64,000 nucleotides of DNA, taken from assembly GCA_051648645.1 (NCBI GenBank), contig JBOFFP010000010.1, positions 1 through 64,000 of the forward strand. The letters are read 5' to 3'. Shown piece after piece: positions 3,244 through 4,706 of this stretch; position 1 is the stretch's first letter, and every line of letters starts with the position of its first letter. Source of the DNA: Candidatus Rhabdochlamydia sp. Lineage in GTDB: Bacteria; Chlamydiota; Chlamydiia; Chlamydiales; Rhabdochlamydiaceae. Made by a program: the position numbers and the translations under genes. The notes under the pieces are model-generated. The model ran no database searches. It had not been told where the DNA came from and saw only the letters and a list, made by a program, of their open reading frames with translations.

Positions 3244-3420
3244 CCGCTCTCCAAAACTTATTCAAAGTTAATCATTAATGATTAATTGAACAACTTTTGG
3301 TCGAGAGCTATCACGCTCTCGTTTTAATTTCTTGATGCTGCGAGATTCTCGCTGCCTTACCCTCGCGGCATGCAAAGCATACCACTAGGCAAGGCACACC
3401 AAGCCCATCGCTCTTTTATA
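3244..3420 (-). ncRNA. Putative omegaRNA (reRNA) scaffold of TnpB at the IS right end
   Basis: Lies downstream of and overlaps the tnpB 3' end. Hairpins CGAGAGC-tatcac-GCTCTCG (3302-3321) and GCGAGA-t-TCTCGC (3340-3352), palindrome TTAATCATTAATGATTAA (3268-3285). 5' boundary is uncertain. Confidence 0.5.
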
Positions 3421-4706
3421 AGAGCAAGGCCCAAGCTGGGCACTTGTGAAACTATTATTTCACTATTTTTTGAAAAGTCCCGCAGAACTTTTCTAAGACC
3501 ATTGATCGCAGAATTTTCATCTCGATGATGTATGGTCTTGCATTCTGCACATTGCCATTCTCTAATAGAAGGATTTATCCCCCCTTCTACCATTTTCTGG
3601 CAACAGCTGCAGGTACGAGTTGTCCCTTTTTCGTCATATTCTAAAAAAGTCTTTCCCGATTTTTTTGCAACCCAAGAGAGTACTTCTTTGAACCGACCGA
3701 TCAATGATCGGTTATTCATTCCCCGTCTCATCTTTGTATTTATCCCTTCTCCATTTGGAGCATAGTCTCCGATTGCTATGCAATCGTATTCTTTGTATAG
3801 GCTATGTGCTGTGGTATACATAAACGTCTTAGTCTGCTCTCGCCGTTTACGCTCAGCTTTTTTTAGGGTGTGATGGAATTTTTCCCATTTTTTGGAGGGA
3901 AGATAATATTCGGTTGCTAGTACTGAAAGTCTTTTGGATTTTTTAAGACATTTGTCTCTTTTACTTTTAAGTTCATCGATTCTTTTATCGAAGGTTTTTA
4001 GCCAGGTCGGTGCAGCAATTTCTAGGGCTTTTGCATTTGTATCGACGCCATAGACAAGATTTTTGTGGTTTGGATCTAAGGCTATGGTTTTTATAATAGT
4101 TTTTTTTGCTGGGAGTTCTTTTTGTATTGTGAAGGTGGCATAAAATTCTCCAAATTCTGAAGTGATACGCAAATTGCGAATGATTTTATCTTTGAGTAAA
4201 TCTGCATTAGGAAGAAAAAGGATAACAGAACGCTGCTTACATTCTTGTCCCATACCTAAGGATAGGATGAGGTTCTTGTTTTCGATTTTAAACCCTTTAT
4301 TGGGTTCATCATAAAAAAGAGAAAACCATTTTTGTTTCCAGGCTCTGAATTTGGGAAAACCAACAAGTTTTCGTTTACCTTTTTTAGATTTTTGATGGGT
4401 TTGAATGGCTTGGCTAAGTCTTAAGGCTGTGTTTTTTAAGGGAGAAGAGTGTACAACTTTAAGGAAGGGATTTTCTTCTTTCATCTTCGGAAGAAGATTT
4501 CTTAATCCTCGCTTTGTATAGAGAGTTCTAACGATATCTGAACTTTGGGTTTTATAGAAATTTTGTTTTAAATCAAGGGCTTGGTTTAAGAGGTTATTAT
4601 AAACCCAATTGCAAATTCTGGATTGTCCATTGAGAGTGTTTGCTACTGCCGGATCTACGATGACTTTAAGTCGGAGGGCTATATTTTCTTTACGATTTTG
4701 TTGCAT
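3357..4706 (-). CDS. tnpB: RNA-guided endonuclease TnpB (IS607-associated, rearranged RuvC-II)
   Basis: N-terminal CNWVYNNLL helix, GFPKFR, RuvC-I IALDPNHKN, IAIGDY, YDEKGTTRTCSCC...WQCAEC zinc finger, RuvC-III HRDENSAIN. Likely ATG at 4706 overlaps the tnpA stop; the ORF track starts at 4763. Confidence 0.92.
   Translation of the reverse strand: MQQNRKENIALRLKVIVDPAVANTLNGQSRICNWVYNNLLNQALDLKQNFYKTQSSDIVRTLYTKRGLRNLLPKMKEENPFLKVVHSSPLKNTALRLSQAIQTHQKSKKGKRKLVGFPKFRAWKQKWFSLFYDEPNKGFKIENKNLILSLGMGQECKQRSVILFLPNADLLKDKIIRNLRITSEFGEFYATFTIQKELPAKKTIIKTIALDPNHKNLVYGVDTNAKALEIAAPTWLKTFDKRIDELKSKRDKCLKKSKRLSVLATEYYLPSKKWEKFHHTLKKAERKRREQTKTFMYTTAHSLYKEYDCIAIGDYAPNGEGINTKMRRGMNNRSLIGRFKEVLSWVAKKSGKTFLEYDEKGTTRTCSCCQKMVEGGINPSIREWQCAECKTIHHRDENSAINGLRKVLRDFSKNSEIIVSQVPSLGLALIKERWAWCALPSGMLCMPRG

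Follow-up and report, generated by a model that had tools for sequence, protein, structure and literature searches.

The window, by which the whole stretch of DNA analysed is meant, comprises 64,000 nucleotides of Candidatus Rhabdochlamydia sp. (assembly GCA_051648645.1, contig JBOFFP010000010.1, positions 1 to 64,000, forward strand). This chlamydial DNA harbours an insertion sequence of the IS607 family, present in one non-autonomous copy. The tnpB gene of the element very probably encodes an intact TnpB of the published class in which the active-site glutamate has been relocated. The relocated-glutamate arrangement itself is already known, and the window gene is a further example of it. A chlamydial route to the Fanzors, which the first-pass annotation of this DNA had considered plausible, is not supported by the sequence, fold and tree comparisons that were run. 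The parts of the element are as follows.

3244..5003, minus strand: whole IS607-family element, about 1,760 bp, non-autonomous, starting with GGGGC... and stopping with ...GAGCGG
4949..5003, minus strand: left-end non-coding terminus with a ~22-nt inverted copy of the right-end subterminal motif (seen by eye)
4708..4948, minus strand: tnpA pseudogene, located by tblastn with the TnpA of a relative
3357..4706, minus strand: tnpB gene, 449 aa plus stop
3244..3470, minus strand: predicted right-end guide RNA (omegaRNA/reRNA) scaffold, overlapping the last ~115 nt of tnpB
3224..3243, minus strand: presumed guide segment, flanking DNA past the right end, within the 45-nt spacer before the ruvC start

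Identification of tnpB

The program-made list of open reading frames (ORFs) contained a minus-strand ORF of 468 aa at 3357..4763. The 22 close aligned homologues start at or near M20 of this ORF (window position 4706), and on the sequence an ATG at 4706 was seen by eye to overlap the last codons of the tnpA tail frame. On these two grounds the gene was placed at 3357-4706, as in the first-pass annotation. Residue numbers follow the 468-aa ORF, while the 70-sequence alignment and the structural model were kept in 449-aa numbering (add 19).

The protein was matched by the NCBIfam model NF040570 (guided_TnpB) with 143.3 bits (cut-off 100) over residues 33-425, and by Pfam Cas12f1-like_TNB with an E-value of 5.6e-16; the OrfB_IS605 match remained below threshold. 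No frameshift or internal stop was found across the 449 codons, and all catalytic residues and zinc ligands were kept, so that the earlier description as an intact TnpB holds. The equivalog model NF038280 (IS607_TnpB) gave 48.9 bits against a cut-off of 350, and the IS200_TnpB model was also far under its cut-off. Judged by these profiles, the window TnpB lies outside the narrow NF038280 subgroup.

Active site and zinc finger

The four active-site positions listed first below were checked by hand on the sequence.

Codon 4074-4076, minus strand: D230, RuvC-I Asp (IALDPNH)
Codon 3768-3770, minus strand: G332, Gly at the canonical RuvC-II Glu position (IAIGDY)
Codon 3630-3632, minus strand: E378, alternative Glu (YDEKGTTRTCSCC)
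Codon 3519-3521, minus strand: D415, RuvC-III Asp (HRDENSA)
Codons within 3540-3611, minus strand: zinc-finger cysteines C385/C388 (YDEKGTTRTCSCC) and C405/C408 (second CxxC)

All motifs quoted in the first-pass annotation were thereby recovered, including the four cysteines. Positions were compared with solved chains using HMMER alignments. The RuvC-II Glu of ISDra2 TnpB (..GTEHL motif), presumably E271, falls on G332, and the corresponding Glu of an ISDra2-like designed nuclease falls on the same residue; the window protein thus has Gly where ISDra2 TnpB has the canonical Glu. E467 of the mimivirus protein L79/Fanzor2 falls on E378, and the ..IGKL.. of Fanzor2 on ..IGDY.. of the window protein. 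The relocation of the glutamate as in Fanzor2, proposed from the first reading of the sequence, was confirmed by this alignment and by the conservation of E378. The D324A and E467A mutants of this Fanzor2 (ApmFNuc) are described as catalytically dead in the excerpts used of PMC10530073.

In an alignment of 70 homologues with identities down to 22%, residues D230, G332, E378, C385, C388, C408 and R414 were invariant, and D415 and C405 were conserved to at least 90%. The spacing E378-x6-C385, which places the alternative Glu six residues ahead of the first CxxC, was likewise invariant. Given this conservation, the active-site pattern is no chance occurrence. Among the best 120 database homologues, E-x6-CxxC was present in 118, Gly at RuvC-II in 116 and RDEN in 118. 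In the window protein, 147 residues separate D from E, 16 lie between the two CxxC motifs and 6 between the second CxxC and D. The D..E..D spacing fits the published regular expression.

The RuvC-I motif reads D-P-N (LDPNHKN); of the 120 closest database homologues, 112 likewise have PN behind the Asp. DPG is present in a few relatives at 37-41% identity (P0133, P0136, P0143).

In the arrangement proposed, Gly takes the place of the RuvC-II Glu on strand beta-4, and a Glu that directly follows strand beta-5, six positions ahead of the zinc finger, would complete the D-E-D site. Nuclease activity is plausible, as suggested by the intact ORF, catalytic triad and guide-RNA scaffold together with a ratio of nonsynonymous to synonymous substitution rates (dN/dS) of 0.11.

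Predicted structure

A model was calculated with AlphaFold2 (AF2) from the 70-sequence alignment and reached a predicted local distance difference test score (pLDDT) of 91.7 and a predicted template modelling score (pTM) of 0.81. It has the TnpB fold (WED-REC-RuvC-zinc finger). As far as topology goes, strand beta-4 (residues 309-313 in 449 numbering) terminates in G332, and E378 is placed two residues past strand beta-5 (353-357 in 449 numbering). The same strand arrangement is found in RIIr-5 (Altae-Tran et al. 2023, PMC10691335), described in excerpts of that paper as the largest rearranged branch, with Gly in place of Glu and an alternative Glu tied to beta-5. Structural matches of the model were the following.

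ISDra2 TnpB (PDB 8h1j / 8exa): 28.9, root mean square deviation 3.0 Å over 357/362 residues, Foldseek E 5.8e-19
ISFba1 TnpB: 25.0
Mimivirus Fanzor2 (9b0l_P): 21.5, 370 residues aligned
Cas12f structures: about 20.5
Spizellomyces Fanzor1: 12.7

The predicted fold is therefore nearer to ISDra2 TnpB than to Fanzor2 at the level of the model.

The IS607-family element and its tnpA remnant

The ends of the element were placed by aligning eight copies from one relative chromosome and 27 right ends. The flanks of the eight copies are unrelated to each other, and their termini are the same as those at window positions 5003 and 3244. Contigs of public sequencing runs break or join exactly at 3242-3245 and 5002-5007. 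The junctions read GG|GGC... (left) and ...GAGC|GG (right) in the window and in 17 other copies of which both ends were found, and empty-site contigs retain CC/GG at 3244-3245. GG at both junctions fits the crossover at GG dinucleotides that is given for IS607 in the excerpts of PMC10711439.

The tnpA gene is disrupted. Its N-terminal part, with the MerR-type helix-turn-helix (HTH), lies at 4835-4948 and corresponds to aa 1-41 of a 206-aa TnpA (56% identity). The C-terminal tail at 4708-4836 corresponds to aa 161-203 (91% identity) and is out of frame with the N-terminal part; the serine-recombinase catalytic core between them is deleted. Compared with a copy in a genome of the same family (L015), the window is 361 bp short at about 4836, and a contig in runs X18/X19 holds exactly 361 extra nt at 4836. 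Full-size relatives of the element measure 2148-2157 bp. The eight copies, in which the tnpA deletion is smaller, measure 1954 bp, as against ~1760 bp for the window copy. An intact 206-aa TnpA is encoded directly upstream of tnpB in seven relatives (L016, L017, L019, L027, L029, L031, L034), with the Pfam domains Resolvase (E 6.2e-21) and MerR HTH (E 4.2e-14). The tnpA remnant beside the gene and the domains of the relatives' TnpA bear out the IS607 association that had been assumed at the outset. ISDra2 is an IS200/IS605 element with a Y1 transposase and is unlike the window element in this respect.

Outside the window, on the same contig, an ~80-bp remnant of the element was detected (G000:C10 ~90,030-90,110; L004 1495-1575). 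It runs from the left end through the region of the tnpA start codon and is fused to the last ~17 nt of the right end. This stump was apparently formed via recombination at a common ~11-nt motif.

Guide RNA at the right end

The 3' regions of 27 relatives, some of them at ~45-50% protein identity, could be aligned up to an invariant terminus ..AGAGCGG (3244-3250 in the window), at which the scaffold ends and beyond which similarity ceases. For structure prediction, three near-duplicates (L019, L042, L064) and the two rows with the most gaps (L057, L069) were left out. L063 was omitted as well, although it belongs to neither of these groups. RNAalifold on 22 sequences gave a consensus of 55 pairs, with compensatory double changes in 37. 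The cells of the alignment were paired to 94.5%, as compared to 42-50% when partners were slid by 1-3 columns; the slid controls had 11-19 pairs with double changes, and none of 500 shuffles attained the observed values. At one long-range pair, the sequences divide evenly into 11 with C-G and 11 with U-A. In the window copy, 55/55 pairs are formed, a figure that may slightly favour the window, since it is the first row of the alignment. The final 12 nt of the scaffold take part in long-range pairing with segments further upstream (helices 1 and 7). No Rfam family was matched in 3000-5300 at E-values up to 1.

The covariation points to a structured guide RNA encoded at the 3' end of tnpB and the right end of the element; its expression and processing are predicted. 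The presumed guide at 3224..3243 was assigned according to the build of TnpB guide RNAs in the excerpts of PMC10711439.

The TnpB of ISXfa1 (Xylella fastidiosa; Yoon et al. 2023) offers a parallel, likened to the window TnpB by description and not by sequence. It is likewise an IS607 protein with GG recombination. Its reRNA passes the right end and needs a long-range pseudoknot, and the window scaffold has predicted long-range pairs to its last 12 nt. The ISXfa1 target-adjacent motif (TAM), GGG, and a fixed right-flanking nucleotide are experimental results.

On the model of characterised IS607/IS605 TnpBs and Fanzor2, the 3' transcript of the element would be processed to a scaffold of ~150-230 nt that continues into the flanking DNA as guide. 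The complex of TnpB and RNA would cut guide-matching DNA beside a G-rich motif at the element-free GG site, and cutting of the empty site would help the element to be retained or to home. Both the TAM and the biological role of the window element are, like this mechanism, putative.

Insertion site, mobility and selection

The right end of the element lies 45 nt upstream of the ruvC start codon (3198), in the same orientation as ruvC. The genome of the window (1.67 Mb, 12 contigs, 93% complete) holds one full copy. The gene was found in none of the eight same-genus genomes searched and in one of 24 same-family genomes; one same-family chromosome carries eight full copies and one partial copy. 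Across the phylum, 14 of 401 sampled genomes, representing 13 of 212 genera, had a match at E <= 1e-30. In two genomes of the same genus (G001, G002), 114-160 bp separate ruvC from the heptosyltransferase gene, and the element is absent from this interval.

Empty sites were also found in public sequencing runs. In runs X1, X18 and X19, contigs pass from position 3245 to 5075 through 81 nt of different sequence; on further contigs of these runs the element, at about 95-99% identity, has other flanks. In run X7, a 100%-identical ruvC leader runs beyond 3245 into sequence resembling the DNA past the left end. The empty sites and the presence of the element at other flanks show that the insertion is polymorphic among close strains and that the element has moved recently.

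This position ahead of ruvC could in principle reflect a domesticated regulator of the downstream ruvC-ruvA genes, acting either as a TldR-like DNA binder guided by RNA or by donating a promoter. The short distance, the common orientation and the presumed guide, which equals the ruvC leader, would fit such a role. However, the catalytic triad is fully conserved, unlike in dead TnpB derivatives, and the insertion is absent from all eight same-genus genomes searched and from contigs of near-identical strains. The same element occurs at unrelated loci elsewhere, and the guide of any TnpB element is set by the DNA that happens to adjoin its right end. A regulatory function of this kind is considered extremely improbable. 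Assignment to the inactivated TnpB derivatives (TldR-like) was rejected, the catalytic residues being conserved and no fixed association with a host gene being seen in the eight same-genus genomes.

Selection on tnpB was estimated by the Nei-Gojobori method. Compared with the partial copy in G013 (dS 0.51, 235 codons), dN/dS was 0.11; with three distant full-length copies, values of 0.09-0.14 were obtained at saturated dS. The gene has thus been under purifying selection, most of which, as measured, predates the tnpA deletion.

That timing is one of several points that weigh against an intact and functional TnpB in this genome. The tnpB stop lies ~11 or more residues before the end of most relatives, which have a Gln codon there; a 94%-identical relative (P0001) shares the position of the early stop. 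As tnpA is dead and the genome holds a single full copy, the nuclease may have no role here. Contigs of the RNA libraries X7, X18 and X19 span tnpB at a depth similar to, or up to about twice, that of flanking genes, but such contigs cannot prove transcription, strand or RNA ends. Finally, a first AF2 model built from 23 close sequences had a pLDDT of 70.8, with values <50 around E378 and D415, and was replaced by the model described above.

Some of these points would also be expected of a decaying relic, that is, an element immobilised by the loss of tnpA, with tnpB and its RNA disused and intact only because little time has elapsed. The deleted catalytic core of tnpA, the single full copy accompanied by the ~80-bp left-end/right-end stump, the fragmentation of a second, different TnpB in the same genome and the early tnpB stop agree with this explanation. 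Against it stand the 449 codons free of frameshifts and internal stops, the complete set of catalytic residues and zinc ligands and the retention of all 55 RNA pairs. Moreover, related strains carry copies of 95-100% identity at other sites, in part together with an intact tnpA, so that TnpA could be supplied in trans during co-infection. Decay is therefore regarded as unlikely, and an intact alternative-glutamate TnpB on a non-autonomous IS607-family element is preferred.

Comparison with Fanzors and other rearranged TnpBs

In the excerpts used of Yoon et al. 2023 (PMC10711439), the Fanzor fingerprint is given as DPG at RuvC-I together with a Glu placed six residues ahead of the zinc finger, a combination found in <1% of TnpB homologues. 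TnpBs with this fingerprint, mostly cyanobacterial, are termed "pro-Fanzors" there, and TnpBs with the alternative Glu are split into a D-Phi-G clade and a DPG clade. Nucleases with a relocated Glu, both TnpBs and Fanzors, are reported to be without collateral cleavage in excerpts of Jiang et al. 2023 (PMC10530073).

The window TnpB resembles the rearranged TnpBs ('TnpB2' of Jiang et al. 2023, 'Ealt' of Yoon et al. 2023, RIIr-5 of Altae-Tran et al. 2023) in the Gly at RuvC-II, in the alternative Glu after beta-5 and six residues before CxxC, and in the D..E..D spacing. Its RuvC-I motif, D-P-N, differs from both forms given in the published excerpts, D-Phi-G and D-P-G, and the protein would consequently be skipped by both regular expressions quoted from Yoon et al. 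2023 (PMC10711439). Of the features that mark Fanzors and pro-Fanzors, it has the alternative Glu; D-P-G at RuvC-I is absent, and in the tree described below it does not branch with the giant-virus Fanzor2 homologues.

The mimivirus Fanzor2 (Acanthamoeba polyphaga mimivirus; ApmFNuc, L79; PDB 9b0l) is encoded by a virus of a eukaryote and shares only 16-17% identity with the window TnpB. It carries an N-terminal extension of ~125 residues that the window TnpB does not have. The profile score of L79 was 50.6 bits, as compared to 48.5 for ISDra2 TnpB and 71.9 for the ISDra2-like designed TnpB.

Viral contigs were scanned with a pattern from the zinc-finger stretch of Fanzor2, and giant-virus genes were recovered. 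Two of these are clear Fanzor2 homologues (E 2e-106 and 2.7e-68 to 9b0l_P). An alignment search of the viral contigs yielded a single 29-residue match that was of no use. A tree of 62 rows was calculated with IQ-TREE (quick search, LG+C20 with posterior mean site frequencies (PMSF), support by the Shimodaira-Hasegawa-like approximate likelihood ratio test (SH-aLRT)). It comprised 10 canonical-glutamate TnpBs of Chlamydiales as outgroup, five giant-virus sequences, one DPG-bearing TnpB of a viral contig and 46 bacterial sequences of the D-P-N type; cyanobacterial pro-Fanzors and eukaryotic Fanzors are not represented. Three giant-virus or viral rows are long-branched, several rows deviate in composition, and labels of metagenome-assembled genomes (MAGs) may be wrong.

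The tree showed a trichotomy of the giant-virus clade (support 99), the DPG-bearing viral-contig sequence and the 46-row bacterial clade (support 99); mimivirus Fanzor2 stands outside the bacterial clade that holds the window TnpB. The window protein lies deep inside a chlamydial clade of 13 rows (support 99), which is nested four to five forks deep among rows from Ectothiorhodospiraceae, Chloroflexota, Thermus, Planctomycetota, Ralstonia and Bacillota. Constraining giant-virus and chlamydial rows to group together cost 31.3 log-likelihood (lnL) units with a p-value of 0.068 in the approximately unbiased (AU) test, so that this grouping is disfavoured and not rejected at 5%. In the phylogenetic comparison that the first-pass annotation had suggested, at the level of this quick tree, the window TnpB was placed apart from giant-virus Fanzor2.

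The chlamydial TnpB might nevertheless be close kin of the Fanzors, a pro-Fanzor that marks a transfer route to eukaryotes or giant viruses. It has the alternative Glu and the Pro after the RuvC-I Asp in common with them (PMC10711439, in excerpts) and is carried by an IS607 element, as is Fanzor2. Chlamydiae live within eukaryotic cells, as stated in an excerpt of PMC5451489, and a clade of giant-virus and chlamydial rows was not rejected by the AU test. The DPG and D{P}G regular expressions used for pro-Fanzors would, as excerpted from PMC10711439, miss a DPN clade. On the other side, the five giant-virus Fanzor2 homologues form a clade of their own outside the 46 bacterial rows, the chlamydial rows are nested below other bacterial groups, and the forced grouping is costly. 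The profile score of L79 is near that of ISDra2 TnpB and under that of the designed TnpB, RuvC-I reads DPN and not DPG, and no eukaryote, giant virus or cyanobacterium was named among the named homologues. Close Fanzor kinship of the chlamydial protein is therefore judged very improbable, and the special relationship assumed in the first-pass annotation found no support, the predicted fold being nearer to ISDra2 as well. The proposed transfer route from chlamydiae to eukaryotes fared no better, because the clade with DPN and the alternative Glu is spread over many bacterial phyla. On present evidence, the element has no bearing on the entry of Fanzors into eukaryotes. A literature search found no paper that links IS607 with chlamydia and amoeba, or Fanzor with chlamydia.

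A broader variant concerns the D-P-N IS607 clade as a whole. This clade was invisible to the DPG/D{P}G searches behind the statement that pro-Fanzors are confined to cyanobacteria. Its distance to Fanzor2 could equal that of the cyanobacterial group or be smaller. The chance of this appears small. If it were true, the IS607/Fanzor2 elements of mimiviruses could realistically have been drawn from the chlamydial members, which have amoebal hosts in common with giant viruses.

The RuvC-I motif varied among the giant-virus Fanzor2 homologues. L104, L107 and L115 read D-L-G (GIDLGV..) at the presumed RuvC-I Asp, L109 reads DPG and L114 DAG; a published statement describes Fanzors as near exclusively DPG. 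A non-giant viral contig of 27 kb encodes a compact 389-aa TnpB with DPG and the alternative Glu and hence the pro-Fanzor fingerprint (L108:1601-2767), which forms a long branch in the tree.

Distribution and significance

The search with the window protein found 926 database proteins at E <= 1e-3, of which the best 120 listed all had at least 58% identity, and 2162 matches in a representative library. Named loci at ~38-44% identity belong to Bacillaceae, Clostridia, Ralstonia, Methanohalobium and others, and many of them read DPNHKN or DQNHKN, IGDY and a Glu ahead of the zinc finger. A search with the DPG-bearing relative P0133 named only Thermus scotoductus and Ktedonobacteraceae among 83 matches. 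Among the named homologues of the window protein and of P0133, no eukaryote, giant virus or cyanobacterium occurred. In the ESM Atlas, nothing beyond generic TnpB clusters of Bacillota and Cyanobacteriota was matched. According to these searches, the clade with DPN and the alternative Glu spans Bacillota, Chloroflexota, Thermus, Pseudomonadota and others and is no chlamydial peculiarity.

The element provides a clean, fully annotated IS607 example with the alternative glutamate from a phylum that has been described as TnpB-poor. Its ends are defined, its guide-RNA structure is supported by covariation and absent from Rfam, and its recent movement between strains is directly evidenced. With 449 aa, the protein is a compact candidate for genome-editing screens. 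The comparison further indicates that definitions of "Fanzor-like" TnpBs by the DPG motif miss a broad D-P-N clade.

Other TnpBs were encountered in Chlamydiae as well. The second, different TnpB in the genome of the window (G000:C1:488700-489015) consists of C-terminal fragments with an internal stop (NF040570 scores of 39.8 and 21.7 bits). Canonical-glutamate TnpBs of the IS200/IS605 type were present in 25 of 150 genomes sampled at E <= 1e-40. They are multi-copy in the Chlamydiales genomes G206, G260 and G382 (loci L122, L125), with at least 12, 8 and 7 copies, respectively, which softens the published remark of TnpB-poor Chlamydiae.

Neighbouring genes

The insertion lies beside a variable cluster of glycosyltransferase family 9 (GT9, heptosyltransferase) genes (window 5078-7123; L098 1859-3016). 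Four other same-genus genomes have an extra GT9 gene between ruvC and the GT9 gene of the window. The ruvC-ruvA genes may now rely on read-through or on a promoter inside the element. The position of a gene for a RuvC-fold nuclease beside the true ruvC is a coincidence. On the plus strand, a frame that is open at the window start (positions 3..2108) encodes 701 aa of the 3' portion of a very large repeat protein rich in Gly, Asn, Ser and Thr, which looks like a beta-helical adhesin or an autotransporter passenger.

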